64,000 nucleotides of DNA from an archaeon (GTDB lineage Archaea > Nanobdellota > Nanobdellia > SCGC-AAA011-G17 > GW2011-AR17): assembly GCA_043825775.1 (NCBI GenBank), contig JBDRRK010000012.1, positions 129,237 to 193,236 of the forward strand. Direction: 5' to 3'. Of this stretch, positions 19,938 through 47,480 are shown in pieces. The notes under the pieces are model-generated. The model saw only the letters and a list, made by a program, of their open reading frames with translations. It made no database searches and was not told where the DNA came from. A program made the position numbers and the translations under genes. Every line of letters begins with the position of its first letter. Within the stretch, counting starts at the first letter, position 1.

Positions 19938-19939
19938 TT

Positions 19940-31913: not shown

Positions 31914-31938
31914 CACTGTCCGAAACCCGCCTTTAAAA
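31914..31938 (+). promoter_or_regulatory. archaeal BRE/TATA promoter, island family copy 1 (ccgaaacccgcctttaaaa)
   Basis: BRE-like CGAAA immediately 5' of an A/T-rich TATA box, ~35 nt upstream of ATG 31973. A GAGGAGG Shine-Dalgarno lies in between. Confidence 0.6.
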
Positions 31939-31972
31939 TGCGGAAAACACAGGACATGTGAGGAGGAAAAAG

Positions 31973-32356
31973 ATGAGAGGCACTGTTTATGACAAGATGA
32001 GGGTTTTGAAAGAAGGCCTGAAAAAGGAGTTCAAGTGGCTGAAAGATAGGGAGATGTTTGGGGCAATGTCAAAGCTAAGTTCATGGCATTACCCAAATAA
32101 AAGAACCAAGACAATGAAGCTGACAAATCAGGAGGCAATGATCTACGAGTTTCTGTTGAAGAACAACTATAATCCTTCAACCTGCTACAAGTGGATGCTT
32201 GCCTGCTGTACAAACGAGGATCTGCAGAAAAAGCTGATGAAAGGAGAAATCAGCATGAAGAAAGCAATACAGCAACCTTATGGCAAACTCTCGCAGACAG
32301 AGCAGGAATTCTTGTACCAGATAAAATTATGCATTAAAAAATATGTAATAAGGTGA
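31973..32356 (+). CDS. hypothetical protein (first gene of the integrase operon; track ORF starts at GTG 31958)
   Basis: The ATG at 31973 is preceded by GAGGAGG. Visibly G+C-richer codon usage than the host genes. Confidence 0.45.
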   Translation: MRGTVYDKMRVLKEGLKKEFKWLKDREMFGAMSKLSSWHYPNKRTKTMKLTNQEAMIYEFLLKNNYNPSTCYKWMLACCTNEDLQKKLMKGEISMKKAIQQPYGKLSQTEQEFLYQIKLCIKKYVIR

Positions 32357-33183
32357 TAAACATGAAAACAAAATATGCACAGGACAGAGGGGAGAACAAG
32401 CCCTTTACTTGTTCAAAGAAAAAGCTTCCCTATGTTCCCACAAGGGAGGAAATCTTGAAACTATTGGCTTATGCAGATGATGTTAGATTGGGATTTTCAA
32501 TATTTGTCAGTGTTTTTCAAGGTTTACGAATTGGGGAAACTGCGAAATTAAAATGGAGCAATGTTGACTTAATTAATGGCGAAATAAGAATTATTGATGG
32601 AAAAAATACAAGAAGGTATAAGTCAGGCTATGGAAAAGACAGGATAGTTCCGATAAATGAGATGTTCTTGTATATATGGAAGGCTTGGAGATTAATGAAT
32701 CCAGATCAGGAGTATGTTCTTCCAAGTGATGATAGGTTTGGAGTAAGGGCTGATTACAAGAATATAGTTAGACAGATACAGAAGAAATTGTTTAGTTCCC
32801 TGAAAAAAGCTGAATTGTTACAAGTTGATTATTATCAAAAGGATGGCAAGCCAAGATACAGATATCACACGCATTCTTTTAGGCATGTTTGTGGCACTAA
32901 CTTAAGAAGAGCTGGAATGAGGATTGAGGATATTCGAGATTTTCTTGGGCATGATGACATTGATACGACACAGGTTTACACTGAATTAACTAAAGATGAT
33001 CTAAGAGAAGTAAGCCATACTGCTTATGCTTATCCTAAAAGCAGTTTAGGATTACCTAAAGTGGAGATAAGTGTTGACAAGGAAACCTTGCTTTTACAGA
33101 GAGAGATTATTGAGAAGCAGTTGGAATTGGCAAAAATGCAGATGATTGGAAAAAGGGAGGTTGAAATCTATGCGGATATGTAA
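32353..33183 (+). CDS. tyrosine recombinase / integrase (second copy)
   Basis: HTHSFRHVCGTNLRRAGMRIEDIRDFLGHDDIDTTQVYTEL catalytic region. Overlaps the upstream ORF by 4 nt. Confidence 0.85.
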   Translation: MINMKTKYAQDRGENKPFTCSKKKLPYVPTREEILKLLAYADDVRLGFSIFVSVFQGLRIGETAKLKWSNVDLINGEIRIIDGKNTRRYKSGYGKDRIVPINEMFLYIWKAWRLMNPDQEYVLPSDDRFGVRADYKNIVRQIQKKLFSSLKKAELLQVDYYQKDGKPRYRYHTHSFRHVCGTNLRRAGMRIEDIRDFLGHDDIDTTQVYTELTKDDLREVSHTAYAYPKSSLGLPKVEISVDKETLLLQREIIEKQLELAKMQMIGKREVEIYADM

Positions 33184-33475
33184 CAACAAAAGGTATGAAA
33201 ATGAATTTGTCAAGAAGATGATTGATGAAGGACATCATTGTGAGAGAGTAGCTGGTAGTGGTTCAGGTAGAAATGCAGTTTGTGATTGTGTTTTATTTAA
33301 GGAAGGCAAGGTGTACTTAGTTGAGGTCAAGGCAACAAAAGAGAAAAAATTCTATTTTAGGGCTGGAATTAAACAGCAGTTGGACATTATGTCGAATATT
33401 GCAAGAAAGTCGAACGTTGGGGCTTTATTGGCCATCAAATTCAAACACAGAGGCTGGGAGATCATGGAATTATGA
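33170..33475 (+). CDS. Hjc-like Holliday junction resolvase (PD-(D/E)xK)
   Basis: E-x(n)-D-x(n)-EVK arrangement: HCERVAGSGSG ... DCVLFKEGKVYLVEVKATKE. Small size (~100 aa) matches archaeal Hjc/Hje. Confidence 0.55.
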   Translation: MRICNNKRYENEFVKKMIDEGHHCERVAGSGSGRNAVCDCVLFKEGKVYLVEVKATKEKKFYFRAGIKQQLDIMSNIARKSNVGALLAIKFKHRGWEIMEL

Positions 33476-33933
33476 AGATTCGTGATAGATTATTGGAGCT
33501 TTTGCAGGATTCTCCCCTGACTACAAAGGAAATACAGACAAATATTCCAGACAAGAGTAACAGGGTTTTAGCAGCAACTGTTAGCAATAATCCTGAGGTG
33601 TTTATTAGATTGGAGATGGGATTGGTTGGGTTGAAGAATAGGGATGAGCATTTGGTTACAGGGAAGAAGATAAGGCACGATAAATATTGTTTGTATAAGA
33701 AAATAGCTAATTTGTTAATTGAAAGGGAGAGAAGATTGGAAGAGTTGTATGATGCTCTTCCTGATGAGAAGATGGTTTCTATTAGGGCAAGTGTTACTCA
33801 GCATCCTGAATTGTTTTTTAGAATTGAACCTGGTGTTATTGGTAGAAGAGGAAGGGATGAGTATTTAATTGAGAAGTATAGGAGAGCAAGGAATTCTACT
33901 AAGATTCGTAGACCTAGGTTGGTGAATAGGTAA
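33472..33933 (+). CDS. protein with two tandem ~50-aa repeat domains (winged-helix-like)
   Basis: Internal duplication: LTTKEIQTNIPDKSNRVLAATVSNNPEVFIRLEMGLVGLKNRDEHL and LPDEKMVSIRASVTQHPELFFRIEPGVIGRRGRDEYL. Confidence 0.4.
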   Translation: MKIRDRLLELLQDSPLTTKEIQTNIPDKSNRVLAATVSNNPEVFIRLEMGLVGLKNRDEHLVTGKKIRHDKYCLYKKIANLLIERERRLEELYDALPDEKMVSIRASVTQHPELFFRIEPGVIGRRGRDEYLIEKYRRARNSTKIRRPRLVNR

Positions 33934-34689
33934 TTATTTTTTAGCTTGTTTCCATAAACTATCAAATAATTCCTTAAACTGTTGTGAATATGAAATATTT
34001 TCTATAAATATACAATTAGGTTCATCGAAATTGAATAAGAGTGTTATGTTGCCACAAACCATAAAATTGGATTTATCAGTTCCTTTGTGGTATCTGTATT
34101 CTTTATCATAGTTTTTGAAACTTTTTCCTTTCCTTTTTTCCTTTCCTTCCTTTGTAATAGAAGTCATGATAACTTTGGTTTTAATCCCTTTCTTTTTTGT
34201 AAGATCCATATATTTAGGCCATAAAAGTACAATATCTCTTTCTTTGCTATCATTTGCCCCATAAAGGTAGATTATTGACTTTTTATCTAATTGTTCTATG
34301 AAACTAAATAAAGCACTTCTGATTCCTTCAATACTTTCATAGACTTTCACATTACAAGATTCTTTTTTTGAATTAAATTCTTCTTCCAATTCAGGTAATT
34401 GTTTGAGGAAGGCACTTTCTTCTTGTTCAATACTAAGCTTTTTTTGTTTGATATAATCAGATATCTTTTTTGGATTTTGGGGAATATAATATTTTATATT
34501 ATTTTTAATAACAAAAGAGATTATTCCTTTGTTTGTTAACGAATCTAGAACTTGGTATATTTTGCCTGATTTAAATTTGGATTCTTTGATTATTTTACTT
34601 ACTTTTGATTCTCCTATCTTGATTAATGTAAGATAGATTATTGCTTCATTTCTTGTTAATCCAAATTTCATTAAAATTTCAGGTTTCAT
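33934..34689 (-). CDS. TrmB-family transcriptional regulator
   Basis: N-terminal HTH (LTRNEAIIYLTLIKIGESKVSKI) plus a C-terminal domain. Paralog of 36674-37429. Confidence 0.6.
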   Translation of the reverse strand: MKPEILMKFGLTRNEAIIYLTLIKIGESKVSKIIKESKFKSGKIYQVLDSLTNKGIISFVIKNNIKYYIPQNPKKISDYIKQKKLSIEQEESAFLKQLPELEEEFNSKKESCNVKVYESIEGIRSALFSFIEQLDKKSIIYLYGANDSKERDIVLLWPKYMDLTKKKGIKTKVIMTSITKEGKEKRKGKSFKNYDKEYRYHKGTDKSNFMVCGNITLLFNFDEPNCIFIENISYSQQFKELFDSLWKQAKK

Positions 34690-34784
34690 ATAATTTAGAA
34701 ATATTTTGTCATATATAAATGTTACTTTTACACTCCCCTTGAGGGGGTTTAATATTTATATAGTAATCAAAAAAGCTAATCTAT

Positions 34785-35306
34785 ATGAGAATGAGAATCG
34801 GAGAATTTGGGATAAGATATGATAGGTATAATAGAAGATATCTTGATTTTAGAGCAGATGATGTTGCTAATGATTTGATAAGATTACAACGTCTTATTCC
34901 TGAATTTAAGGATCCTCGTTCAGAAGAAGAATTATTAGATAGGTTAAGTTTAAGGTACATAAGAAGAGCTGATCTGGTAACAGCACAAGATGGTAGGGGA
35001 TTAGGACAAGATATTGGTTTTCTTTTTTCATACTCTTTTTCTGATTCTGATACTTATCTATGGTTGGGAGGAGTTGTTCCAGAGCATAGGAATAATGGTT
35101 TGATGTCAGCAATGATAGATTTTACACAAATTATTAATCCAAAAAGTTATATGAAAGTAAAGACCTACTCTGAATTTGTTAATATGCGACGATTACTTGA
35201 GGAAGAAAAATGCTTTGATCTCTTGAAAGAATCTGAGGAAAAAGATGGGAGAGTAAGTATGGAATATGTTGCTCGTTTTACTCATAATATGTTATTAGAA
35301 GAATGA
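34785..35306 (+). CDS. GNAT-like acetyltransferase (tentative)
   Basis: WLGGVVPEHRNNGLMSAMI resembles GNAT motif A. Confidence 0.35.
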   Translation: MRMRIGEFGIRYDRYNRRYLDFRADDVANDLIRLQRLIPEFKDPRSEEELLDRLSLRYIRRADLVTAQDGRGLGQDIGFLFSYSFSDSDTYLWLGGVVPEHRNNGLMSAMIDFTQIINPKSYMKVKTYSEFVNMRRLLEEEKCFDLLKESEEKDGRVSMEYVARFTHNMLLEE

Positions 35307-35702
35307 TTATTCAATTGTAACAGGAAAACCAACTTCTTTAAGAGCCTCTACAGCAATTTCAAATTTTTCTTCCCTAATCATTATATAATCTCTTGAAAAT
35401 GTTGAAACAACAAGTATATTTAATCCTTTATCAGCAATAGTTTTAGATATTTTTGCTAAGAATCCGGGTGCGAGAAAAGGAATAGAAACCTTAATCTCAA
35501 AAAGCTTGAACCATTTTACATCTTTTTCATATTTGGTATTCTTGAGATTTCCTTCTTCTGTTACAATAGTAGTTTCTGTTTCATCTTTACATATAAGAAA
35601 GTGATTTTTTATTTCAGTTTCTTCTCCTTGTAAATAAGCATATCTTCCTTTATGAACAATTACTGGACTTGCTTTTATTACTTCGTCTAATGTTGGTTCC
35701 AT
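35307..35702 (-). CDS. ACT-domain-like small protein (tentative)
   Basis: C-terminal bab-fold-like segment GFLAKISKTIADKGLNILVVSTF. Confidence 0.3.
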   Translation of the reverse strand: MEPTLDEVIKASPVIVHKGRYAYLQGEETEIKNHFLICKDETETTIVTEEGNLKNTKYEKDVKWFKLFEIKVSIPFLAPGFLAKISKTIADKGLNILVVSTFSRDYIMIREEKFEIAVEALKEVGFPVTIE

Positions 35703-35742
35703 AGAAAAAATAAAATTGTTCTATATTAAATAGTTTACTAAT

Positions 35743-36108
35743 CTATTTCTCTTTAAATTTAGAATTCTTACTAACAAACTTTCTAACACTTTTTTCAATT
35801 TTCTCATTCATATAACCAATAACAAAGACCTTTTTACTTCCAAAAATTATATCAATATTACAACCATCACAGCTAAAGTTATACCTTTCATCTACAATTT
35901 TTTTAACATCCTTTTCTTCAAGCTCTTTTTCAGCGTCTTTAACAGATGGATTCCATTTTTTGTAAACCATTTCATCTAAATGCTCAAGAAAGACATATGA
36001 AATTCCATGAATAAATTTATGTAAAAATTGTAAAATATCTTGATTTTTTTCAAATACAAAATAGGAATATCCATCTCTGTTTCCAATTGATGTAATTATT
36101 ACTGCCAT
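35743..36108 (-). CDS. hypothetical protein
   Basis: ORF only. Confidence 0.3.
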   Translation of the reverse strand: MAVIITSIGNRDGYSYFVFEKNQDILQFLHKFIHGISYVFLEHLDEMVYKKWNPSVKDAEKELEEKDVKKIVDERYNFSCDGCNIDIIFGSKKVFVIGYMNEKIEKSVRKFVSKNSKFKEK

Positions 36109-36187
36109 TTAATAAGGTAAAATCTTTGAATTTAATAGTTTTTCTCTTAAGTAAAACTTATAAAACCAAAGAAATATTCCCTTTTTT

Positions 36188-36418
36188 ATGAAAAACGAAG
36201 AAAGACCTCATTATTGTTCTGCTTGTGATTTATATGCTATTTCAGAAAGATGTTTTTTATATAGTGTAGAACAGGCAGATCCATTAATTGCTAGAGAAAT
36301 TACATCTATAACAATTGAACAAAGATGTGATGTTGTAAAAGCTCAGATTAAAAGGCAGATAAATTTAAGAGGAATATGTTTAGGTAATAATCCAGATGGT
36401 TCTTTAGAATGGTTATAG
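36188..36418 (+). CDS. hypothetical small Cys-containing protein
   Basis: ORF only. Confidence 0.25.
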   Translation: MKNEERPHYCSACDLYAISERCFLYSVEQADPLIAREITSITIEQRCDVVKAQIKRQINLRGICLGNNPDGSLEWL

Positions 36419-36673
36419 ATTTATGAATATTATTTCTAATTATAACTTAAACCTAGTAAGATATTCTCTAATATTATCCAATTCCTGCTGAATAGCTTCC
36501 CCTTCGGTTTTCTTTCCTTCTTTAATCTCTTTAAGCAAATCTTCATAACATGATTCTACAAATATCAATAATCCATTTATTGCTTTTTGACTAAATCCTG
36601 ATGGTGGCATTTTGTTTACTCCTATAATATATTTAAACCGAAAGCCTTTTATATATTATCTCCCCTGTATGGG

Positions 36674-37429
36674 GTGTATATGTATAAAGAAAAACTACAA
36701 GAATTAGGATTAACTCAAGGAGAGGCAAAGGTTTATGAGGCTTTATTAGTCTTAGGTCCTTCAACAGTTGGTCCGATTGTTAAGAAATCTAGTGTTGCTT
36801 ATTCAAATATCTATGAAATCCTTAACAGACTATTGGATAAAGGTTTAGTCAGTTTTATTGTAAAGGAAAAAACAAAATACTTTCAAGCTGAGGATATCAA
36901 TAGGATTAATGATTATTTAATTGCTCAAGAAAAAGAATTAAATGCACGAAAGCAAACTTTTAATGAACTTCAACCCAAATTAGAGAAATTAAAAGGAGCA
37001 GATAAAAAGAAAGAAGAAGCAGAGGTCTTTATTGGTGAAAAAGGACTTATGACAGCTTATGAGAAACTAATGAAAGGTTCTAATAAAAAAGATCAAGGTT
37101 ACTTTTTTTATGTTCATGATGTAGAGTATTATGAAAGAGCTGAGAAATTTTATATTAAATCTTGGCACATTCTTAGGGAATATAAAAACAAATGGAAAGG
37201 AATAAGCACTGAAGATTTTAAGAAAACTAAATTAGCTAAAAAATATCCTCCTTTTGTTAATCAAAGATATGTTTCTTTTCCTGTTCCAAGTAATATTGAT
37301 TTTATTGGAGATAAAGTTTTGATTACAACATGGAAAGAAAATCCAGTTGGGATATTAATTCATTCTAAGGAGATAGTAGAAAGTTATAAGTCTTACTTTG
37401 ATTCTGTTTGGAAGTTGGCTAAAAAATAA
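36674..37429 (+). CDS. TrmB-family transcriptional regulator (paralog)
   Basis: LTQGEAKVYEALLVLGPSTVGPI HTH. Same 251-aa length and conserved C-terminal ...SVWKLAKK as 33934-34689. Confidence 0.6.
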   Translation: MYMYKEKLQELGLTQGEAKVYEALLVLGPSTVGPIVKKSSVAYSNIYEILNRLLDKGLVSFIVKEKTKYFQAEDINRINDYLIAQEKELNARKQTFNELQPKLEKLKGADKKKEEAEVFIGEKGLMTAYEKLMKGSNKKDQGYFFYVHDVEYYERAEKFYIKSWHILREYKNKWKGISTEDFKKTKLAKKYPPFVNQRYVSFPVPSNIDFIGDKVLITTWKENPVGILIHSKEIVESYKSYFDSVWKLAKK

Positions 37430-37834
37430 TCATAACTTAACTTCTTTCCACCAATCATAATAAGGTAATAACTCCTTTAACTTTACAGTTTTATTTTTGT
37501 CTAATATAATCTCTGTGTTAAGATTGCTTTCATCTGTTTCTTTAATTAATTGTCTGCAATTACCACAAGGAGGAATTACAAATATTTTGCCTTTCTCATC
37601 TTTCCAAACAGCAACTATTTTTTTGATTTTATATTCTCCCTTTGTAATCATTGAACCAATTGCAATTTTTTCAGCACAGAAAACATTTGAACCTATATCC
37701 AAGCAAGTACCAAGATAAATTTTTCCTTTAGCAGAAACCAAAGCACAACCTACATCTGCAAACAGTCCCTCTTTTGTTTTCTTGGCTTTGATTACAGATG
37801 CTGCTTTTTTGATTAAGTTCAGATTGGTTATCAT
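37430..37834 (-). CDS. cdd: cytidine deaminase
   Basis: CAEKIAI ... PCGNCRQLI zinc-binding motifs (H/C-A-E ... PCxxC). Confidence 0.8.
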   Translation of the reverse strand: MITNLNLIKKAASVIKAKKTKEGLFADVGCALVSAKGKIYLGTCLDIGSNVFCAEKIAIGSMITKGEYKIKKIVAVWKDEKGKIFVIPPCGNCRQLIKETDESNLNTEIILDKNKTVKLKELLPYYDWWKEVKL

Positions 37835-37885
37835 AATTATTTAAGAGTTTAGCCATTTAAATCTTTTTCGTAACACCACATTAAT

Positions 37886-37910
37886 ACCTTTACCGAATCC
37901 CGCCTTTTAA
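37886..37910 (+). promoter_or_regulatory. archaeal BRE/TATA promoter, island family copy 2 (tacctttaccgaatcccgccttttaa)
   Basis: Lies ~25 nt upstream of ATG 37933 and shares the tacctt..ccgaa.cc.gc..ttta core with the copies at 43297 and 47452. Confidence 0.6.
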
Positions 37911-37932
37911 CCAAAGTAAGCACAGTGCTTAT

Positions 37933-38634
37933 ATGTTAAACAAGATTTACTGCATGGACAACCTGAAGTACCTGAAGAAGGTAAAGGATAACTCAGTTGA
38001 CCTTGTTGTTATTGACCCACCGTACAATGTGAGCCAGAAGAACAACATAAAATACAAGGACATTAACATTGTCAAGAACTTTGGTTCATGGGATTATGGC
38101 TTTGATCCTGTTCCTGTTTTGAAAGAATTAAAAAGAGTGTTAAAACCCAATGGACAGATTTATATCTTCTGTGCTACCAAACAGATTCCAATTTATATGA
38201 ATATACTTGAAGAAGAATGGTTTTTTAGGAATTTATTAGTTTGGTACAAGACAAATCCTGCTCCTAGGATGAGTAAGACTAACTTTGTGTTTGCAAATGA
38301 ATATATTCTTTATGCTATAAATGAAAAGGTTAAACCCAGTTCTGCTACTTTTAATTTTTTGGGACAGTCTTCTATGCATAACACAATCATTACTTCGGCT
38401 TTGCAAGGGAAAGAGAGATTAAAGAAAGATGGGAAGGCACTTCATCCAACCCAAAAGCCACTTTCTGTATTGAAGAAGTTGATTTCTGTATCAAGTAATG
38501 AAGATGATGTTGTGTTGGATGTGTTTATGGGTGTTGGTTCAACTGCAGTTGCTTGTAAAGAGCTAGGTAGAAACTTTATGGGCTGTGAGTTAGATAAGGA
38601 GTATGTTAGGGAGGGGAGGAAGAGATTAGACTAA
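37933..38634 (+). CDS. DNA methyltransferase (N6-adenine/N4-cytosine, beta-class; solitary)
   Basis: Motif IV VVIDPPYNV comes before motif I DVFMGVGSTAVA, as in the ParB-/CcrM-like MTase family. No adjacent endonuclease. Confidence 0.75.
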   Translation: MLNKIYCMDNLKYLKKVKDNSVDLVVIDPPYNVSQKNNIKYKDINIVKNFGSWDYGFDPVPVLKELKRVLKPNGQIYIFCATKQIPIYMNILEEEWFFRNLLVWYKTNPAPRMSKTNFVFANEYILYAINEKVKPSSATFNFLGQSSMHNTIITSALQGKERLKKDGKALHPTQKPLSVLKKLISVSSNEDDVVLDVFMGVGSTAVACKELGRNFMGCELDKEYVREGRKRLD

Positions 38635-38967
38635 TCCTGCTGATGCTCCCCAAACTATAACGCCTGCCGTAACAACTGATGAAACAATTCTTCCTATATG
38701 ATAAAAAGATTCTACCATTTTAAATTTTATTACATAAGAAGCTAAACCAATAAATCCTAAAACTGTTGCAATATTTATATACAAAACAACTAAAAAAGGA
38801 ATGCTTTGAAATATAGAAAAAAATGAAACTAATGCAATTGCATTTGCAAACATTGTTATCCTTCCAGTATAATATTTCTCAACAAGAAACCCAATAACCA
38901 TTAAAGATAAAGGGGCTAATAGATATAGCAATGTTTTGGGGAGTAGTTGTATCAGCCAAATTTCCAT
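38626..38967 (-). CDS. small membrane protein (3-4 TM)
   Basis: Hydrophobic profile. Confidence 0.35.
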   Translation of the reverse strand: MEIWLIQLLPKTLLYLLAPLSLMVIGFLVEKYYTGRITMFANAIALVSFFSIFQSIPFLVVLYINIATVLGFIGLASYVIKFKMVESFYHIGRIVSSVVTAGVIVWGASAGLV

Positions 38968-38973
38968 TCTAAA

Positions 38974-39279
38974 TTAAAACTCAGGTAAATCTCCTAAGTT
39001 ATCTTCCTCCTTGTTATTGCCTTCTGTTTTGATATACTCCTTGTCCCTTACCACAAAAATTTCTACCTTGTCTCCTTTCTTTAACTTACCCTCTTTGTTT
39101 TTATATGCAGTAATAATCTTCTTATAAGATTTAAGAAAACGAACAATATCTTCTCTCGGAAGCCTTCTCAAATTTGAAACATTAGTTCCAGTATCATCAT
39201 ATATTTCAACTTTGTTGATATGTCTCGGTTCTTTGTTGTAGTTTACCCCTACAATTATATAATCTGCCCATTTTTCCAT
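38974..39279 (-). CDS. DUF3892-like small protein (tentative)
   Basis: MEKWADYIIVGVNYNKEPRHINKVEIYDD ... pattern recalled for DUF3892. Confidence 0.35.
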   Translation of the reverse strand: MEKWADYIIVGVNYNKEPRHINKVEIYDDTGTNVSNLRRLPREDIVRFLKSYKKIITAYKNKEGKLKKGDKVEIFVVRDKEYIKTEGNNKEEDNLGDLPEF

Positions 39280-39283
39280 TTTA

Positions 39284-39568
39284 TTACCTACCTTTGTTTT
39301 TATAACCTTTTTTCCTTAGCCTTTCATTCACAGACCCATGTTTGTTAGACATTTTTCCTATTTCTCTTCCATATTTGTCTTTGCCTGTTCTTTTCCAATC
39401 TACAAACTGATTTGTTTTACCAGTCATCCCAGCTGCACTTTTTTTGGCAGTTGGTCCACCAAATTGGTATAATTCTGGAGCCCTCACATTATCTAAACGA
39501 AATCTAGTTCCATTTGCAAAAATGCCTGAATCTCCGTCATGCCATTCTTTTACTCTACGCTTTACCAT
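39284..39568 (-). CDS. short staphylococcal-nuclease (SNase)-like protein
   Basis: DGDSGIF...FRLDNVRAPE...DKYGREI resembles the SNase DGDT / RL.GIDAPE / YGR motifs. Confidence 0.45.
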   Translation of the reverse strand: MVKRRVKEWHDGDSGIFANGTRFRLDNVRAPELYQFGGPTAKKSAAGMTGKTNQFVDWKRTGKDKYGREIGKMSNKHGSVNERLRKKGYKNKGR

Positions 39569-39741: not shown

Positions 39742-40425
39742 ATGGTAAAAAAATACAATTCTTTTAAAAAAGCTCTGCAAGGTCTTCATGGTTTAAGCGA
39801 TGAAGAGGCTGATGCTTTTTTTCTTTTGTGCAATAACAAAATTTTCTGTGTTAATGATGTAAAAAAGATTTTAGTTGATATAAAAGCTCATAAAAAAAGC
39901 AGATCCACAGCATATAATTTAGTAGAAAAATTCGTAAAAGTGGGATTAATAACGCAAGTAAACAATGGTAGCAAAAAACAAGAATATGAATGTGTGCATC
40001 CAAGGGCAATATATAATGAACTTAAAATCCAGTTAACTCATGCTGAAAAAGAATTGCCTGAATTAGAAACTTCTTATGAAACTTCAGATTTTAAATCCCA
40101 AGATCCAAGAGAAAAATCTAAAATATTAAAATCAGAAAATGAAATATATTCAATATGTTATTCTTTAAGAGATTGTAAAATAGATATTGTTCATGATGGA
40201 AGCCCAATTATGACAGATTTTTTGGAAAGAATCAAAGATTGTGGATGTGTAAAGAAAGGAGCTACAAATGTTATTATATTTAAAAATGATGAAAAAGGAG
40301 ACAACTGCGGAGTTATAGAATTGTTAAAAAGAACCGAAAAGGGTGCTAAGGTAAGATTGTATGGTTATTTGTTGTATGATGAAGAAAAGTATAATTATTT
40401 TAAAAAAAAGGAGGTGAAAAAATGA
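39742..40425 (+). CDS. HTH-containing protein (putative toxin/partner of the Panacea protein)
   Basis: Winged-helix-like STAYNLVEKFVKVGLI, then a Cys-containing C-terminal domain. Overlaps the next gene by 4 nt. Confidence 0.4.
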   Translation: MVKKYNSFKKALQGLHGLSDEEADAFFLLCNNKIFCVNDVKKILVDIKAHKKSRSTAYNLVEKFVKVGLITQVNNGSKKQEYECVHPRAIYNELKIQLTHAEKELPELETSYETSDFKSQDPREKSKILKSENEIYSICYSLRDCKIDIVHDGSPIMTDFLERIKDCGCVKKGATNVIIFKNDEKGDNCGVIELLKRTEKGAKVRLYGYLLYDEEKYNYFKKKEVKK

Positions 40426-40856
40426 ATGAGCAAAAAGAAATTATGCTTTCTGTAATTTATTTGCTCGAAAAAGTATGGGGGAGGACATATTTACAAAAAT
40501 TTTTTTATTTATTAAACCGTGAAGTGTTTAAAGGTCATCTTTTTAGTTATGACCTATATAAATATGGGCCTTTCTCTGAACAAATAAATACACAACTTAC
40601 AGAATTGGAAATTGAAGGTCTTGTTGAAGAAAAAGCTCTTTTGACCAAAGGATTGCATACAGCTTATACATATAAATTAACAAAAAAAGGTCAAAAATAT
40701 GCCAGCAACATTTTCATAAAACTACCAAATAAAACAAGAGATGAACTAGTGAATTATACAAATAAATTCAAACAGTATTCACCAACAGAACTATTAAGAT
40801 TTGTCTATGAAAAATACCCTGAAGTCACAAAGAATAGCATCTACAATAAAGAATAG
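40422..40856 (+). CDS. Panacea (DUF4065/SocA-like) domain protein, putative antitoxin
   Basis: LQKFFYLLNREVF ... YKYGPFSE matches the Panacea signature (KLqKLlY ... YGP). Paralogous to 55024-55599. Confidence 0.5.
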   Translation: MNEQKEIMLSVIYLLEKVWGRTYLQKFFYLLNREVFKGHLFSYDLYKYGPFSEQINTQLTELEIEGLVEEKALLTKGLHTAYTYKLTKKGQKYASNIFIKLPNKTRDELVNYTNKFKQYSPTELLRFVYEKYPEVTKNSIYNKE

Positions 40857-40959
40857 TGGCTGAGATATAACTTTTACTTAATAGCAACTTTTATAAATGT
40901 ATCTATCTTGTATCTAAATTGTGGCTAAGAATATATATCTATGTAGCTAAAAAGGAGGT

Positions 40960-41220
40960 ATGGAAAAAGAGATGGTCAATGCTATTTCATTGCTAAAATC
41001 AAGTAAATATAGATTTAAGATTACTAAAGCAATAGATAATAATACTCTTACTCCTTCTGAAATAGCAAATAAAACCCAAATAAGACTTAATCACGTAAGT
41101 ATGTTCTTGAGAGAACTAAAAGACAATAAATTAGTTAAATGCCTAAATGAAAAAAGTAGAAAAGGAAGGCTATATGAATTAACAGAACTAGGTAAAAATG
41201 CAATCAAAAAACTCAATTAA
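40960..41220 (+). CDS. small winged-HTH regulator, controller (C-protein)-like, of the restriction-modification system
   Basis: 86-aa HTH protein (LTPSEIANKTQIRLNHVSMFLRELKDNKLV) immediately upstream of and overlapping the MTase gene. Confidence 0.5.
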   Translation: MEKEMVNAISLLKSSKYRFKITKAIDNNTLTPSEIANKTQIRLNHVSMFLRELKDNKLVKCLNEKSRKGRLYELTELGKNAIKKLN

Positions 41221-42478
41221 ATTCAAAGATGAATCTTGGGACTTTAGAAAAGGTGATACCAAATACAGTAATCATGGTATTCATACTTATCCTGCTATGA
41301 TGATACCCCAAATAGCTAGAAGATTAATTGAAATGTATGGAAAAGGTTCAAAAGTAATTTTAGATCCATTTATGGGTTCTGGAACCGCTTTACTCGAAGC
41401 TACATTGCATAATAATTTTATAAAAGCTTATGGTATTGATATTAACCCTCTTGCATTATTAATTGCAAAAGCTAAAACAACACCAATTGATCCAAATAAA
41501 CTTCTTGTAGAATATAACAGATTAATCGCAGATAGTGTTAGTGAAAAAAAGAAAGTCATGTTTGAGGGAAAGAAAATTAACAAACCTAATTTTTTTAATA
41601 TTGATTTCTGGTTTAAACCTGATGTGATTACAGATTTAGCAATAATAAAAGATAGCATTAATAATATTTCTAATGAAACAACAAAAAACTTTTTCTTGGT
41701 GGCTTTTTCCGAAACTGTTAGAAATGTATCAAATACAAGAAATAGGGAATTCAAGCTTTATAGAATGAGTCCTGCAATGTTAGAAAAACATAATCCTGAT
41801 ACATTTAATGAATTCAAAGAAAGAGTCAGACTTAATTTAGCAAAGATGGATGAATTTACAAAAGAAGTAAATAAAAATTGTCAAGTAAATGTCCTTGATG
41901 AAGACACAAGAAACATCAAGTCAATAAAAGATCAAGAAGTGGATTTAATTGTTACTTCCCCACCTTATGGTGATAGTAGAACAACTGTGGCTTATGGCCA
42001 ATTTTCAAGGTTAGCTTTGCAATGGATTGGTTTTGATAAAAAAACAGTAATTGATATTGATAAAATTAGTTTGGGTGGGATTCCTACAAAAGAACTTCAA
42101 GTTAATCTAGAATCACCAACATTAAAAAAAATAATAGAAGAAATCGCAAAAGAAGATTCAAAAAGAGCAAAGGATGTCTTAAGTTTTTATGTTGATTTTG
42201 ATAAATGCATAAAAGAATTGCATAGAGTAACCAAAGATGGAGCTTATTTATGTTTTGTTGTGGGAAACAGGACAGTTAAAGGAATACAAATACCTACCGA
42301 TGATATAATTGTCGAGTTATTTAAGTCTAAAAATAATTATCAACATATTAATACCTTTATTAGGAATATTCCACATAAAAGAATGCCTAAGAAAAATAGC
42401 CCAACAAATAAGATTGGTAAACTTTCAAATACAATGAATGAAGAGTGGATTATTATTCTTCAAAAGAAAAAACATTAA
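41198..42478 (+). CDS. DNA methyltransferase (N4-C/N6-A family, alpha-type order I-TRD-IV)
   Basis: N-terminal HTYPAMMIPQIARRLIEMY ... DPFMGSGT (motif I) and VTSPPYG (motif IV) ~190 aa later. This is the PF01555-type MTase family to which M.MvaI and M.BcnI belong. Confidence 0.8.
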   Translation: MQSKNSIKFKDESWDFRKGDTKYSNHGIHTYPAMMIPQIARRLIEMYGKGSKVILDPFMGSGTALLEATLHNNFIKAYGIDINPLALLIAKAKTTPIDPNKLLVEYNRLIADSVSEKKKVMFEGKKINKPNFFNIDFWFKPDVITDLAIIKDSINNISNETTKNFFLVAFSETVRNVSNTRNREFKLYRMSPAMLEKHNPDTFNEFKERVRLNLAKMDEFTKEVNKNCQVNVLDEDTRNIKSIKDQEVDLIVTSPPYGDSRTTVAYGQFSRLALQWIGFDKKTVIDIDKISLGGIPTKELQVNLESPTLKKIIEEIAKEDSKRAKDVLSFYVDFDKCIKELHRVTKDGAYLCFVVGNRTVKGIQIPTDDIIVELFKSKNNYQHINTFIRNIPHKRMPKKNSPTNKIGKLSNTMNEEWIIILQKKKH

Positions 42479-43215
42479 AGAATAATTTCTTTCTTTTCAT
42501 AGAGTTTATCTAAATGATTTCTGGATAATCTAAATCCTGGACCATGATCTCTAACAAAGAAATTACCTTTTCCCTGAGTCCTTTCTCTAATATCCATTCT
42601 AAACTCCCAAACCATTAATCCTTCTTTTAATAAAAGTTCGAATGCTTTTTCTGTCATTTTTGTTAACAAAATAGCGCTAGAATAATTAAAATATTCGCCA
42701 TCTTTTTCCATCTTCCTAAATGCCAATACCATTAACAGGTTTTCATGTAACTTCTTCTTTAAAATAGCCATTAATTCTTCAATCTTGAAAAAAGAAACTA
42801 CTCCACCTTCTTTGTGAACAATATTCAATTTGTTATTTTCCTCATCTAATTCTAGTTTAAACCCTTGCTCATTAAATCCATCTACTTTTAGAGTTGTCTT
42901 TAATGCTTTTCTTCCTTTAATGTCTTTATAACCATATTTTTCTATTATTTGCTTTGCACTTAATGGAGACCAATGAGGAACTTTTGTAAACAAAGTAACT
43001 CTAGAAGAAGCATCAATCCTTTGTGCTTTTAATTCTACAGGTATACCATTATATGAAAGATCAGGCTCTCCAAGATTATTTTCTTTAATTCCTAGCATAG
43101 TTTCAAGAGTATATCCTATTCCAGTGTTATCTTTTCTTAAAGATTTAACAAACCCTTTATCTTTTAGTTCTTTTAACTTCTCTTTTATATCAATTTCAAT
43201 TAATCCTTCTGCCAT
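42475..43215 (-). CDS. type II restriction endonuclease, MvaI/BcnI-like (tentative)
   Basis: Convergent with the MTase and overlapping it by 4 nt. GIGYTLETMLGIKENNLGEPDL...IPVELKAQR resembles the MvaI_BcnI family N-terminal motif. Confidence 0.45.
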   Translation of the reverse strand: MAEGLIEIDIKEKLKELKDKGFVKSLRKDNTGIGYTLETMLGIKENNLGEPDLSYNGIPVELKAQRIDASSRVTLFTKVPHWSPLSAKQIIEKYGYKDIKGRKALKTTLKVDGFNEQGFKLELDEENNKLNIVHKEGGVVSFFKIEELMAILKKKLHENLLMVLAFRKMEKDGEYFNYSSAILLTKMTEKAFELLLKEGLMVWEFRMDIRERTQGKGNFFVRDHGPGFRLSRNHLDKLYEKKEIIL

Positions 43216-43296
43216 TATTTTTGTTAAGAAACAGATTGTTAAATACTGATATCACATAATAGATACAATTTAGATACAATATTATATTATTCGTAT

Positions 43297-43325
43297 TACC
43301 TTCTCCGAAACCCGCTATTTACATA
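43297..43325 (+). promoter_or_regulatory. archaeal BRE/TATA promoter, island family copy 3 (taccttctccgaaacccgctatttacata)
   Basis: 27/29 identical to the copy at 47452. Lies ~33 nt upstream of ATG 43357. Confidence 0.65.
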
Positions 43326-43356
43326 ACCGAGCCACTAGGCTGTTAGGGTGTGATTA

Positions 43357-43515
43357 ATGAACTGTAGGATATGTAAAAAGAAACTCGAGGCAAAGGAAGG
43401 AACCCTCTGTAGAACATGTATTAGGTTCTTCAAATGGAAATACCGGACTCTTGAGAAATTCCGAGCATCCTACAGTTCAGCCCTTAAAGCCGATGGAGGT
43501 AATCAAGATGACTGA
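43357..43515 (+). CDS. 52-aa zinc-ribbon protein (first gene of the transfer-module operon)
   Basis: MNCRICKKKLEAKEGTLCRTCIRFFKWKYRTLEKFRASYSSALKADGGNQDD with CxxC...CxxC. Its end overlaps the start of the next gene. Not in the ORF track. Confidence 0.4.
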   Translation: MNCRICKKKLEAKEGTLCRTCIRFFKWKYRTLEKFRASYSSALKADGGNQDD

Positions 43516-43738
43516 ACTTCTGAATGGAATATTAATGGGAGTTTTCTTTTCCCTGCTTATGGTGGACACTGTTCTTCTGTTAATGTATCTAATGAAGAAA
43601 TCAAAGAAAAATCCGAAGAAAAAAATTCCCCAAGTCGCACCAAAACAGGAAACTAAACCTGTGAAGGAAAAGAAGGATATTTTTCTTGGATTTAGAAATT
43701 TATTCCCTAAAAAACTTAAAGGAGGTAAAGAACAATGA
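43508..43738 (+). CDS. small single-TM protein with a basic tail (track ORF 43451..43738, start moved to the SD-preceded ATG)
   Basis: GGAGGT lies 7 nt before ATG 43508. Product is MTELLNGILMGVFFSLLMVDTVLLLMYLMKKSKKNPKKK.... Confidence 0.4.
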   Translation: MTELLNGILMGVFFSLLMVDTVLLLMYLMKKSKKNPKKKIPQVAPKQETKPVKEKKDIFLGFRNLFPKKLKGGKEQ

Positions 43739-44070
43739 AATTGGCGCCGATTTTATTTTTGTTGCTTTTGTTGGTAACATTAGCAACGCCCTTAGTTGCA
43801 GCTGCGATTGATTTTGATGAAGAATTGACACAGGAGGAAGAAGATACTTTTGATGCAATTTTAGCACCTATAATGAAAGTATACAACTTTATCAAGTATG
43901 CTATGTCTGTTGTAGCAGTTTTAATGCTAGTATTTGCAGGTATTACTTTTGTAACTGCTGGCGGAGAAACGGGTAAGAAAGAAAAAGCAAAGAATATGAT
44001 GGTAGGAGTTGTGATTGGATTAATAATAATCTGGGTTGCACCTTTGGTTGTGGAGTATATCTTTACATGA
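43735..44070 (+). CDS. VirB2/TrbC-pilin-like or CedA1-like small membrane protein
   Basis: Long Sec signal (MKLAPILFLLLLLVTLATPLVAAA), an acidic segment, then two TM helices separated by a short K-rich loop, at 111 aa. GGAGGT Shine-Dalgarno and an ATGA overlap with the flanking genes. Confidence 0.4.
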   Translation: MKLAPILFLLLLLVTLATPLVAAAIDFDEELTQEEEDTFDAILAPIMKVYNFIKYAMSVVAVLMLVFAGITFVTAGGETGKKEKAKNMMVGVVIGLIIIWVAPLVVEYIFT

Positions 44071-46109
44071 AACCATTTATTTTTGTGGGAGTGATTCTTT
44101 TATTACTCCCATTTTCTTTAGCTTTTGATTGTTCTCTTACTTATGATGAAGATTATTGCCTTGAAATTATAAATTCTGAGTTAAATGAAACTGAAAAAGA
44201 TTTAGTGTTATCTTCTTTATTGTATGCTGATAATAAGTTTCCAAATTACGAATTTATCGAAGAGTATAATTTAGATATAGAGGTTGATGCTCCACCAGAT
44301 AATACTGCTATATATAATTCTGCTCAAATAAAAAATGCTTGGTTGAGTTTTTTAATTGTTTTTCCCTCTATTTATGAAGAAGAAATACTCTATGTTCCTT
44401 ATTATATCAATGTTTTGAGTGAATATAATTATGAAGTTGAGATACCAACTGAAACAAGAGCTGGAGATTGTAGGACTGAATATGAATTAGTTCAAAACAA
44501 TGTAGAGGTTTATTATTATCTTAATAATCTTTTAAAAGGCTCTGGAAAAACTGACTCTTTTGCTTCTAATGATGGAACATTAACAGCAGAACTAAATATT
44601 AACACAAGAATAAAAGTAGATCATTATAGAACACAAACTTACTGCTGTGGGTGGGCTGATTGGCAACAAATAAACTGTGATAGATACTGCACAAGATGTG
44701 TTTATTCCCATACTGATTATGAAGATGATTCAATACAGATTACAGAGGAGAAAAACATTACTCTATATACTGAAGAGCCTTTTGTTAATTTAACTGTTGT
44801 AAATGAGTATTGGAATACAACCAAAGGCATATTTACAGCAGAAAATTACAGCTATTTTGAATTAAATTTTGAAGATTCTTATATTTCCAAACAGAATTAT
44901 TATTATGATCTTGTTTTTGAGAAAAAACCCTACTATATTGCTTACATAAGAGCTAATAATTTCAGCCATACTGCACTAAGTAATCTCTTCTTAGATAACA
45001 ATACCTTTTTTGTAAAAAATACTGAAAATTGCAGTTTATTTGCTTTTAATCACTTCTATAATTTTACTTCTGGATGCGATTTAACTCTTTATCAGGAAAA
45101 TCTAGAAGAATTGAGCATGGAAGAGGGAAATATTAATCTAACTTTTATTTTTTATATAATAATTTTTTTAATAGTAATCTATACAATTTACATACTTCTT
45201 AAATCACAGGCACGAAAGATAATAATTCCTTTATTTTTTATTTTATTATTGCTTCCTCTTGTTTCTGCAGCAGAAGAAGAATGTGGAATAACTAACTTGG
45301 CTTCATGCATTCCTGAAAAGATTTATGATTTTTTTATTAATCTGATAAACCAACCAATTTTACCAACTTTAAGTGCAATTGAATCATTACTTACTGCTGA
45401 AGGAAATATAGATTTATTTTATCATTTATGGAGTGTAATAAGATATATCATGAGCTTCTTTTACATATTTTTCTTTGTCTATGTAGGTTATGTATTTCTA
45501 ATGTCTAATGATAATCCAATCAAAAGAGCACATGCCAAAGAGATGCTAAAGAATACTTTTTTGATGATTATGTTAATTCAAGGTTCATTTTTCATTTATG
45601 GTTTAGCTTTAGATGTAAATAGTGCTTTGAGTAGTGCAATACTAACAATGGTTGATCCAACTTTCTTCTTAATTACTGCCGACAACATTGTAAATATTGG
45701 CTTAGAGTTTATGCTGACATGGACATACTCTTTTATTTTGTTTATAACAATGTTAATGTTGGTTTTAAGATATATGGTAGTCTGTTTTGGAGTTGTGATA
45801 TTCCCCATAGGATTGTTTTGTTATTTTATCCCTCCCATGAAAGCCATTGGAAAGTTTCTTATTTCTTTTTTAGCCATATTTATCTTTGTAACTTTCTTTG
45901 ATTTATTGATTATAGTAGCTTGTTCATACTTAGTTGATATTCCTCTATTTGAAAATTTTAAGATTTGTGTTATGATTATGTGTTTTGGTATTATCATTTA
46001 CACTCTCTGGTTTGCGATTAAATTTACCCTGAGAATGTCTACAAATGTTTCAATCAAGGATGATTTGAATCAGGCTGTAAAATATGTTGCTATGGTTGCT
46101 GCTGTTTAA
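44067..46109 (+). CDS. large polytopic membrane protein with Cys-rich, N-glycosylation-sequon-rich ectodomain (VirB6/TrbL-like candidate)
   Basis: Signal/TM start, ~330-aa extracytoplasmic region with about 14 Cys and ~10 N-x-S/T sequons, then ~8 TM helices over ~330 aa. Confidence 0.45.
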   Translation: MKPFIFVGVILLLLPFSLAFDCSLTYDEDYCLEIINSELNETEKDLVLSSLLYADNKFPNYEFIEEYNLDIEVDAPPDNTAIYNSAQIKNAWLSFLIVFPSIYEEEILYVPYYINVLSEYNYEVEIPTETRAGDCRTEYELVQNNVEVYYYLNNLLKGSGKTDSFASNDGTLTAELNINTRIKVDHYRTQTYCCGWADWQQINCDRYCTRCVYSHTDYEDDSIQITEEKNITLYTEEPFVNLTVVNEYWNTTKGIFTAENYSYFELNFEDSYISKQNYYYDLVFEKKPYYIAYIRANNFSHTALSNLFLDNNTFFVKNTENCSLFAFNHFYNFTSGCDLTLYQENLEELSMEEGNINLTFIFYIIIFLIVIYTIYILLKSQARKIIIPLFFILLLLPLVSAAEEECGITNLASCIPEKIYDFFINLINQPILPTLSAIESLLTAEGNIDLFYHLWSVIRYIMSFFYIFFFVYVGYVFLMSNDNPIKRAHAKEMLKNTFLMIMLIQGSFFIYGLALDVNSALSSAILTMVDPTFFLITADNIVNIGLEFMLTWTYSFILFITMLMLVLRYMVVCFGVVIFPIGLFCYFIPPMKAIGKFLISFLAIFIFVTFFDLLIIVACSYLVDIPLFENFKICVMIMCFGIIIYTLWFAIKFTLRMSTNVSIKDDLNQAVKYVAMVAAV

Positions 46110-46151
46110 GAAACAAATAATTTTTTAAAGAAGGGTATTTTTTCTATAATA

Positions 46152-47120
46152 ATGGAAAAGGTTATCTTTGATAAGAATTTATTATTAAATCCTGAAATAT
46201 TAAAAGAACAATTAGTATTCCCTAAAGATTCTAAGATTGCAATAAAAATGCATATGGGGGAAGAGAATAATAAAACTTGTTTGAGAGCTGAAGATGTTAA
46301 GCCAATTGTAGATGTTTTACTTGAATTAGGAACTAAACCATTTATTATAGATACTCCTGTGTCCTATAAGGGTGGACGTCATACTTGTGAAGCCTATTTG
46401 AAAACTGCTAAGGATAATGGGTTTTCTGAAGAAACTATTGGTTGTCCTATTGTAATTTCAAATGATTATCATGAAGTAAGAACTGAATATATGGATTTTC
46501 AAGTATGTAAGGAACTTTATGAAACAGAGTATATGATTGTTTTATCTCATGTTAAGGGGCATTGTTGTACTGGATTTGGTGGAGCTATTAAGAATTTGTC
46601 TATGGGTGGAGCAACTATAAAGTCTAAAAGAGATATGCATTCTTTAGGAAAACCAGATATTCTTAAAGAGTGTAGTTTGTGTGGTATTTGTGAGAAAAAC
46701 TGCCCTGCAAAGTGTATTAAGATTGATGATAAATTGAATATTAATTTAGATGGTTGTTGGGGCTGTGGTGTTTGTGTTGTTAATTGTCCTGAAAAGATTT
46801 TGAAACCTAAAACTGTGTTAATTGATGAGTTACTTGCTGAAGGTGCTTGGGCTAGTGTGCAGAATAAGAAGAAGATTTTATGTATCAATATGATTAAGAG
46901 GATTACTAAACTTTGTGATTGTGAGTCTGATTCTGGTAAGATTATTGCTCCTGATGTTGGAGTGTTGTTTTCTAGTGATCCAGTTGCAATTGATCAGGCT
47001 TCTATTGATTTGGTTGGAGATGCTTTTTTGAAAGAGAATCATAAGGATCCTCAGTTGCAGATTGATTATTCTGAGAAGTTGGGTTTTGGTGGGAAGGATT
47101 ATGAATTGGTAAAGGTTTAA
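46152..47120 (+). CDS. DUF362-domain protein with 2x[4Fe-4S] ferredoxin domain
   Basis: CSLCGICEKNCP and CWGCGVCVVNCP dicluster motifs inside a DUF362-like fold. Confidence 0.65.
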   Translation: MEKVIFDKNLLLNPEILKEQLVFPKDSKIAIKMHMGEENNKTCLRAEDVKPIVDVLLELGTKPFIIDTPVSYKGGRHTCEAYLKTAKDNGFSEETIGCPIVISNDYHEVRTEYMDFQVCKELYETEYMIVLSHVKGHCCTGFGGAIKNLSMGGATIKSKRDMHSLGKPDILKECSLCGICEKNCPAKCIKIDDKLNINLDGCWGCGVCVVNCPEKILKPKTVLIDELLAEGAWASVQNKKKILCINMIKRITKLCDCESDSGKIIAPDVGVLFSSDPVAIDQASIDLVGDAFLKENHKDPQLQIDYSEKLGFGGKDYELVKV

Positions 47121-47365
47121 TATTTTAATTTTAAATATAATTCATATAAAACAATAATTCCAAAAATACTATTCATAATTATAATTGGAAGGCTAGAAAT
47201 AAGAAATCCATACGCTATCCAGAACCCTGTTCCTATTAATGTAGCTAGAATCATATTTAATGCAAGGTCTTGAACTTTTTTGGTCTTATATGATTTGATT
47301 ACTTGTGGAATAAAACTAACCATAATAAAAATCCCACCTAAATAACCTATTATATCTTCGATCAT
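47117..47365 (-). CDS. SemiSWEET (PQ-loop / MtN3-like 3-TM sugar transporter)
   Basis: 82 aa with 3 TM helices and the PQ motif in TM1 (SFIPQVIKSYKTKKVQDLAL). Confidence 0.6.
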   Translation of the reverse strand: MIEDIIGYLGGIFIMVSFIPQVIKSYKTKKVQDLALNMILATLIGTGFWIAYGFLISSLPIIIMNSIFGIIVLYELYLKLKY

Positions 47366-47451
47366 GATATTATGTTTATTTGATTAGAATATAAATTTTT
47401 CTTATTTTTTTTACATACAAATCCACAATTTCTATTAATTTATTTAAGTAT

Positions 47452-47480
47452 TACCTTTTCCGAAACCTGCTATTTAAAAA
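47452..47480 (+). promoter_or_regulatory. archaeal BRE/TATA promoter, island family copy 4 (taccttttccgaaacctgctatttaaaaa)
   Basis: Lies ~20 nt upstream of ATG 47500, consistent with a leaderless transcript. Confidence 0.65.

Follow-up and report, generated by a model that had tools for sequence, protein, structure and literature searches.

Which promoters drive the accessory genes of a mobile element in an archaeon, and which protein reads them? This question is raised by a 64-kb stretch of DNA with ~30% G+C (below, 'the window' means this whole stretch of 64,000 nt), which holds housekeeping genes in its first 30 kb and, further downstream, an element with an integrase and a type IV secretion system (T4SS). 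A first-pass annotation had noticed four copies of one promoter-like sequence in the element and assigned them to the integrase operon, an orphan methyltransferase, the transfer-module operon and the gene of the VirB4 ATPase. The four sequences are found where it placed them (the second to within 1 nt), and Pfam matches agree with the names given to the downstream genes. Data from the window and from related loci suggest that these sites are an element-specific promoter class of the T4SS/integrase element, and that this class would be read by a transcription factor B (TFB) module encoded by the element itself, a proposal that we regard as evenly balanced between right and wrong.

The pattern CCGAAWCCYGCYWTTTA, with up to two mismatches allowed, matches the window four times, always on the plus strand, at 31920, 37893, 43305 and 47460; the chance expectation from shuffles is 0.04, and none of 100 shuffles reaches four matches. 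The core CCGAANCCNGC occurs at the same four sites only, plus one match with one mismatch inside a gene at 16765, and a position-weight scan of the whole 64 kb found no fifth copy. The core-genome genes in the first 30 kb are free of the motif in both the pattern and the position-weight scans of the window, as had been claimed. Copy 1 (31907..31939, +) consists of the upstream element CTTAATACACTGTCCGAAAC, CCGCC and the T/A box TTTAAAAT (position-weight matrix score 24.2), and is followed by a predicted start at ~31960, a GAGGAGG Shine–Dalgarno sequence and an ATG at 31973. Copy 2 (37880..37912, +; ATTAATACCTTTACCGAATC, CCGCC and TTTTAACC; score 18.2) precedes the methylase gene, whose ATG (37933) lies exactly 40 nt after CCGA and whose mRNA is predicted to be leaderless. 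Copy 3 (43292..43325, +; CGTATTACCTTCTCCGAAAC, CCGC and TATTTACATA) has the highest score, 31.5, with a predicted start at ~43345, the Shine–Dalgarno sequence AGGGTGTGA and an ATG at 43357. In copy 4 (47447..47480, +; AGTATTACCTTTTCCGAAAC, CTGC and TATTTAAAAA; score 27.1), the VirB4 ATG (47500) again follows CCGA by exactly 40 nt, and a leaderless mRNA is predicted. From the end of the motif to the first ATG we measured 34, 22, 31 and 19 nt in copies 1 to 4.

Are these sites just the ordinary promoter of the genome? In upstream regions of window genes, the generic promoter of the same genome reads cGAAAGG-TTTATAAA and lies 22–26 nt before ATG (e.g. at 1316, 10140, 15634 and 59769); due to this short distance, most genes of the window appear to give leaderless or nearly leaderless mRNAs. 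Most often (7 of 15 cases) 2 nt separate GAAA from the TATA octamer, i.e. GAAA-N2-TTTATAAA. The four copies had been taken for a standard TFB-recognition element (BRE) and TATA box, with CGAAA fused to the A/T-rich box, and this description has to be corrected: five G+C-rich bases (CCYGC) stand between GAAA and TATTTA, the TTTA core comes 7 nt after GAAA, and a purine-rich BRE abuts the TATA box in none of the four. The distance from CGAAA to the start codon is ~38–39 nt, as in generic promoters, and the T/A core lies 3–7 nt nearer the start codon than the generic one, i.e. the site of the TATA-binding protein (TBP) is displaced or falls on a poor, half G+C sequence. A TT is conserved 14–15 nt after CCGA, which is 25–26 nt before ATG in the five leaderless cases described below, and the box around it is weak (TTTTAACC, CATTAAAC, TTTTCTAT). 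Thus, judged against the generic spacing and the generic position before ATG, the special promoters form a distinct class.

Which part of the sites has been kept in related elements? Dozens of metagenomic loci (denoted with L numbers) share the T4SS cluster, with conserved synteny, and the motif was found before the first gene of the T4SS operon, that is, at the position of copy 3, in L002, L006, L019, L020 and L057. VirB4 identity to the window is 90% in L002, 72% in L006 and 51–52% in L019 and L020. What has been kept across this range of 51–90% identity is the upstream half, TGTATTAC-AYT-CTCCGAMAY, a stretch of 20 bp at about −53 to −34. The CCYGC block varies, the L002, L006, L019 and L020 loci having CACTTGC, CATCTTC, AATACTG and AATCCCA instead. 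The window-type core CCGAANCCNGC is absent from all other loci searched. Thus, the block on which the first-pass annotation laid its stress (CCYGC plus TATTTA) is specific to one lineage, and the motif is better defined by its upstream half.

With a matrix built from these instances, more copies came to light in L020, ahead of two VirB6-like genes. The 13 instances now in hand, from five lineages, can be aligned over 78 nt with no gap. Counted from CCGA, the ATG is located exactly at +40 in five of these 13 (the window methylase, the window VirB4, two L020 genes and the L057 VirB4). A Shine–Dalgarno-like sequence (AGGGTG, AGGTGG, AAGGTG, GGTGAT or GAGGAGG) begins at +40 in seven of the other eight, AAGGTGAT begins at +44 in the eighth (copy a of L057), and the start codon of all eight non-leaderless instances follows 11–17 nt after +40. 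A weak form of the element precedes the L057 methylase gene, whose ATG is at +42. Mainly because the exact register fits a fixed transcript start, we infer that the sites are promoters and that transcripts begin at +40. Such a promoter would consist of the 20-bp upstream element, a short variable stretch and a weak T/A box with TT at −26/−25, and the transcript would start at the A of ATG (methylase, VirB4) or at the first base of a 12–13-nt Shine–Dalgarno leader (integrase and pilin/VirB6 operons).

Four copies in one orientation, 4–6 kb apart, at the borders of modules and exactly where the cargo of relatives differs, might also be expected of sites that are no promoters at all, i.e. recombination or integrase-binding sites for the insertion of cassettes, or an RNA element in the 5′-untranslated region. 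We consider this very improbable. The RNA element was rejected based on an alignment of 10 sequences, which gave no consensus structure, and on Rfam, which has no family at the sites and matches only a tRNA-Pro in the window; because of this lack of a conserved fold and of Rfam matches, a DNA signal is favoured. As to recombination, the inserted cargo has no flanking repeats, and the sites are also present in L019 and L020, where no integrase is in view. Moreover, the fixed 40 nt to the ATG or Shine–Dalgarno sequence and the well-placed T/A box are traits of a promoter. When a viral collection was searched with the DNA motif, the one match lay inside a coding region and was judged to be chance.

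How did one element come to carry four copies? Copy 3, before the Zn-ribbon/pilin operon, would hold the ancestral position, and copies 1, 2 and 4 would have arisen within the lineage of the window. In L002, L003 and L037 the VirB6 and VirB4 genes are adjacent or overlapping, and the 1.4-kb insert with the DUF362 and PQ-loop genes is absent. Copy 4 seems to have been re-supplied as promoter of VirB4 after this cargo split VirB6 from VirB4, which would explain why copies 3 and 4 are 93% identical (27 of 29 positions, the number counted before); the TACCTT flank once ascribed to these two belongs to copy 2 as well. In L057 the same solution for the VirB4 promoter was reached independently. Copy 1 is, by comparison of the loci, most simply read as a lineage-specific recruitment, because the same four-gene integrase module of L037 (17643-19776) uses an ordinary TATA promoter, with no motif there.

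Could such copying be all there is? There would then be no dedicated regulator, only a promoter cassette copied within the element together with inserted cargo, and the similarity between loci would reflect common descent instead of selection. The near identity of copies 3 and 4 fits this explanation, as do the sequence TTAATAC...CCCGCCTTT shared by copies 1 and 2, the location of copy 4 at the edge of an insertion and the motif-free integrase module of L037. Nevertheless, we think copy-and-paste without selection unlikely, because the upstream element is kept at 51–53% VirB4 identity where its flanks and the following 6–7 nt have fully diverged. Also at odds with it are the +40 register, which is exact in five leaderless cases from three lineages, and the decay of the motif where the TFB pair introduced below is lost (L003, L054).

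If the sites are promoters under selection, which protein could recognise them? The first-pass annotation had proposed a single class of element-specific promoters with, probably, a dedicated regulator, for which two TrmB paralogues or the Lrp-type protein were named as candidates. The first half of this proposal agrees with the promoter-like position of the sites, their restriction to the T4SS/integrase element within the window and their recurrence in related elements; the second half fails, since neither TrmB nor Lrp co-occurs with the motif across related loci. Every island protein was compared with all loci, and just two genes share the distribution of the motif, encoding a small protein, orf82, and a short TFB. 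We regard this pair, at 58730-59759 and not mentioned in the earlier annotation, as the better candidate, as far as gene content can tell. Among the loci that show the start of the operon and ~10 kb beyond VirB4, motif and pair are both present in five lineages (the window, L002/L037, L006, L019 and L057) and both absent from 14 (L003, L007, L009, L011, L013, L016, L017, L021/56, L025, L029, L031, L053, L054 and L055). There is no discordant locus among those that could be assessed, but L054, scored as negative, keeps a decayed copy of the element. On the VirB4 tree, which was built before L057 was retrieved and does not include it, the three positive clades placed there lie dispersed between negative ones.

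Two single cases weigh more than this table of co-occurrence. L057 was picked by VirB4 identity alone, its content unseen, and then showed the TFB pair and three copies of the motif, including a degenerate copy with the VirB4 ATG exactly at +40. In L003, whose VirB4 is 88% identical to that of the window, orf82 and TFB are replaced by unrelated open reading frames (ORFs), the DNA homology ending in the intergenic region between Lrp and orf82, and the motif of the operon is broken by an insertion.

Three other candidates were tried as regulators of the motif and rejected. Homologues of TrmB occur in motif-negative L003, L011/12 and L016 and in neither of motif-positive L006 and L019. The double Lrp is present in L002 and in motif-negative L003, and absent from motif-positive L006 and L019. 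The gene of a 52-aa Zn-ribbon protein is found in motif-negative L027, L011 and L003.

The main rival keeps the promoters and gives them to the TBP and TFB of the host: the element at −53 to −34 would bind a conventional activator or repressor (TrmB-like, Lrp-like, a winged helix-turn-helix protein, the Zn-ribbon protein or orf82 alone), and the linkage of the short TFB to the element would have some other cause. Activator-dependent promoters with a weak BRE/TATA are known from Methanocaldococcus, where Ptr2 binds an upstream activating site, and from Pyrococcus, where TFB-RF1 acts; both proteins work just upstream of BRE, and the special promoters resemble their targets in having a conserved element directly upstream of the BRE position and a poor core promoter. 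The island encodes three TrmB-like proteins, a winged helix-turn-helix protein and the double Lrp, and CGAMA is as far from the start codon as the generic BRE, so that host TFB could dock. However, those known promoters are bound by Lrp-type or other helix-turn-helix proteins, and here none of this kind tracks the motif: TrmB, double Lrp and the Zn-ribbon protein fail to co-occur with it, L003 keeps TrmB and Lrp after loss of the motif, and only orf82 and the short TFB follow it. In addition, apart from GTA-T-TAC the element shows neither dyad nor direct-repeat symmetry, and such a site would be unusual for a dimeric winged helix-turn-helix protein. A conventional regulator is thus a possible but somewhat doubtful explanation.

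What kind of protein is the short TFB that we prefer as reader of the four promoters? The paralogue (58971..59759, +) has 262 aa, with a Zn ribbon and two cyclin repeats. The ribbon (residues 3-35) matches PF08271 with an E-value of 7.6e-11, and its four Cys are invariant in the alignment; the core matches PF00382 in two stretches (E 7.6e-29), and residues 74-258 align (E 1.4e-26) with the TFB core of Pyrococcus woesei in 1D3U/1AIS, which was crystallised with TBP and BRE/TATA DNA. A search for TFB homologues gave nine proteins, five of them short (263-271 aa, 41-68% identity) and four canonical (307-329 aa, 30-33%). Compared with the four canonical TFBs, all eight short proteins (8/8) lack the EWRxF of the B-reader, EWRAF being replaced, and B-reader and B-linker together are shorter by ~32 residues, with ~25 linker residues missing. 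The BRE-recognition helix is VIEVTIRKRS in the consensus of the short group, VIETTLRRRC in the protein of the window and VTEVTIRNRY in canonical TFBs. With a TFB profile, the viral collection yielded only distant TFBs of 24-28% identity. Nine IMG/VR contigs classed as viral (L042-L050) carry full-length TFB homologues, 24-28% identical to the short TFB, which may be genuine virus genes or come from contaminating host DNA.

The gene of orf82 (58730..58978, +) encodes a small basic protein (RRRRIDLKKPIRD) and invariably runs into the first codons of the short TFB gene. It is rare, with 43 representatives among 1.84 billion clusters, has no Pfam match, and its predicted structure (pLDDT 86) found no structural neighbour. 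In the window, L006, L019, L037 (of the L002 population), L041 and L057, the distance from VirB4 to the pair, which is located downstream, is 0.7-8.4 kb. Divergent from it is the double Lrp/AsnC regulator (57641..58627, −), a tandem duplication with two units of helix-turn-helix and ligand domain in one chain, which adjoins the pair in the window, L037, L039 and L057 and is kept in L003 after loss of the pair. The double Lrp may act as an upstream switch for orf82 and TFB; as reader of the motif it is rejected, as described above.

In the mechanism that we propose, host machinery would transcribe orf82 and TFB from an ordinary promoter, possibly under control of the divergent double Lrp. No motif was found before the pair itself. 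Given a poor T/A box that does not keep the register with the BRE-like CGAMA, host TBP and TFB would use the special promoters badly. The short TFB, probably together with the translationally coupled orf82, would recognise the extended element, and excision/integration, DNA methylation and the transfer apparatus would be turned on jointly by this module. A stricter form of this proposal, a two-protein initiation module of B-reader-less TFB and small protein, in which recognition of the 20-bp element replaces that of the canonical BRE/TATA and makes the promoters of the transfer, methylation and integration genes private, is one we put forward more tentatively than the proposal as a whole.

Several points weigh against these proposals. 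The element reaches ~25 bp upstream of the T/A box, beyond the known contacts of a TFB core, so that the help of orf82 or some further protein has to be assumed; the part given to orf82 is a guess, and neither Pfam nor a structure-neighbour search of its model gave a recognisable DNA-binding fold. The loci are few and phylogenetically non-independent, with about three positive clades. L054, with no TFB in view, keeps its decayed copy of the element, and in loci counted as negative the pair could lie beyond the 10-kb flanks. The TFB-bearing L037 has no motif before its integrase module, i.e. membership of the regulon varies. The canonical TFB of the host lies outside the window, and the word 'paralogue' is based on rarity and linkage. 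Finally, support is wholly comparative, and starts and binding are predicted.

What is the element that these promoters would serve? Its VirB4 protein is identical to one of an archaeal metagenome-assembled genome. The 552 VirB4 homologues come mainly from metagenome-assembled genomes of Woesearchaeota and Nanoarchaeota, and a scan of species-representative genomes gave a single match, a short Woesearchaeota contig that does not include the promoter region; the host is thus a Woesearchaeota-like DPANN archaeon. Copy 1 is followed by an operon (31958..33933, +) of orf132 (ATG at 31973), a tyrosine integrase (32353-33183), a Hjc-type resolvase (33146-33475) and orf153, as assigned by Pfam, and copy 2 by an N4/N6 DNA methyltransferase gene (37933..38634, +; PF01555, E 9e-45) with no adjoining nuclease partner. 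The transfer-module operon after copy 3 (43357..46109, +; Pfam and synteny) encodes the 52-aa Zn-ribbon protein (43357-43515, +), a small membrane ORF to 43738, a VirB2/TrbC pilin (43735-44070, +; PF18895/PF04956) and a VirB6-like membrane protein of 680 aa (44067-46109, +), syntenic with products that match TrbL_3/DUF8186 weakly. The cargo between VirB6 and VirB4 (46110..47446) holds genes for a DUF362 Fe-S protein (46152-47120, +) and a PQ-loop (SWEET-like membrane) protein (47117-47365, −), and copy 4 precedes the gene of a PrgI/VirB3-VirB4 fusion ATPase of 1010 aa (47500..50532, +; PF19044).

A VirB4 ATPase, a VirB2-type pilin and a polytopic VirB6-like protein are thereby present in one cluster, the combination expected of a T4SS of the MPF-FATA type. 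Neither a relaxase nor a type IV coupling protein is among the island ORFs scanned with Pfam (window 30700-64000), although a divergent one is possible; the apparatus may thus not be a classical conjugation system. T4SS of Patescibacteria have likewise been reported with neither relaxase nor coupling protein (PMC12102498).

The solitary methylase is 77% identical to its homologue in L006 (L006 1-531) and 73% to that in L057 (L057 2680-3393). Between TFB-positive elements, this identity of 73-77% exceeds those of VirB4 (53-72%) and TFB (38-44%). In these elements the methylase is thus a conserved companion, and one possibility is that it protects transferred DNA.

Other features of the island touch its borders and cargo. 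A tyrosine integrase is present, and neither direct repeats nor a tRNA border was detected as att borders in the window. An inverted repeat of 34 nt with 79% complementarity (31855-31888 and 63849-63882) brackets the 32 kb between the integrase module and the window's end; its right copy lies within a non-coding stretch of ~180 nt (63820-64000) that is homologous to L037 17320-17520, upstream of the L037 integrase module. This region has no Rfam match and could be an att/recombinase site, a regulatory region or a small RNA. In L003 an APH/choline-kinase gene is inserted between pilin and VirB6, in place of the DUF362/PQ-loop insert, and the T4SS cluster seems to tolerate insertion of cargo. 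Directly upstream of the T4SS operon, at 41198-43215, is a type II restriction-modification pair of N4/N6 methylase and MvaI/BcnI-family nuclease; L002 has another system at this spot (220-2984; C5 methylase, Vsr and a helix-turn-helix protein), and many motif-negative loci (L053, L055, L056) have the gene of a C5 methylase as the first long one within the T4SS operon itself. The cargo region encodes, at 55024-56090, what looks like a toxin-antitoxin pair, a UPF0175-domain protein with a PIN-domain protein after it. In L037, two cyclodipeptide-synthase genes (10835-11545 and 19816-20523) flank the TFB and integrase modules, and the window has none.

Does a system of this kind have known counterparts? 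That TFB paralogues can have regulons of their own is established. Sulfolobus TFB2 is linked to the cell cycle, and haloarchaea have families of TFB. Pyrococcus furiosus TFB2 is not known to have a B-reader. This TFB2 is induced by heat shock (PMC6101591), and Sulfolobus TFB3, which has no B-finger/B-reader (PMC6101591), responds to UV and activates Ups pili as well as Ced, a DNA importer of the VirB4 family (PMC6101591, PMC6101594). The likeness is an extra protein of the TFIIB family, here proposed to serve a defined set of genes, a set that, as with TFB3, includes a VirB4-type DNA-transfer machine; the B-reader is absent from TFB3 and the short TFB alike. Unlike TFB3, the short TFB keeps both cyclin repeats and the helix-turn-helix, and unlike the alternative paralogues in general it is encoded inside a transfer element instead of the core genome and is always paired with the small orf82 protein. 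It also differs from most known paralogues in that the sequence itself reveals a candidate cognate motif of 20 bp.

Mobile elements that bring their own TFIIB-family gene are known too, and Halobacterium megaplasmids carry TFB homologues. Further homologues are found in some crenarchaeal rod-shaped viruses, Asgard wyrdviruses and mobile genetic elements (bioRxiv 10.1101/2021.07.29.453957), a study that names no target promoters, whereas candidate targets are at hand here, in a DPANN host and a T4SS element. The short TFBs also differ from those proteins in being a distinct clade, ~30% identical to canonical TFBs. Early and anti-defence genes of archaeal viruses share promoter motifs (PMC11065993), which resemble our case in that one extended regulatory sequence stands before several genes of a mobile element and can serve to define a regulon; there it concerns viruses and anti-defence genes, with an unrelated motif, and here the motif is linked to a TFB paralogue. 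In the limited literature collection searched, no paper tied T4SS elements of DPANN archaea to a TFB, and none gave a promoter motif for the TFB of a mobile element. A looser parallel lies in bacteria. Phages, as well as integrative conjugative elements (ICEs), encode sigma factors, e.g. SPO1 gp28 and T4 gp55. The proposed logic is shared, in that the element supplies a subunit for promoter specificity and marks its own genes with a promoter that the host factor reads poorly, but the protein family and the polymerase are unrelated, so that this is an analogy and not membership. Taken as proposed, the system is an alternative-TFB regulon, which is a known kind, and new is that it is borne by an element, with a legible cognate promoter.

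The choice of promoters by TFB paralogues is largely unsolved, and their target motifs are usually too weak to be seen. A clear 20-bp motif, a predicted fixed start register and a rare, divergent TFB together make a pair of promoter and factor that can be tested directly. Should the link to TFB be wrong, the mobile element of this DPANN archaeon would still have a well-defined class of promoters, which is useful, if modest. In the stricter form of the proposal, the module would be an archaeal counterpart of the sigma factors of phages and ICEs, and the short TFB the first paralogue with a cognate promoter that is legible directly in the sequence. If the link is true, the motif would be a tag for the regulon, and with it the functional gene set, of a T4SS that is uncharacterised although widespread among uncultivated Woesearchaeota and Nanoarchaeota, and archaeal mobile elements would be able to carry a promoter-specificity factor of their own, as phages and some bacterial elements do.

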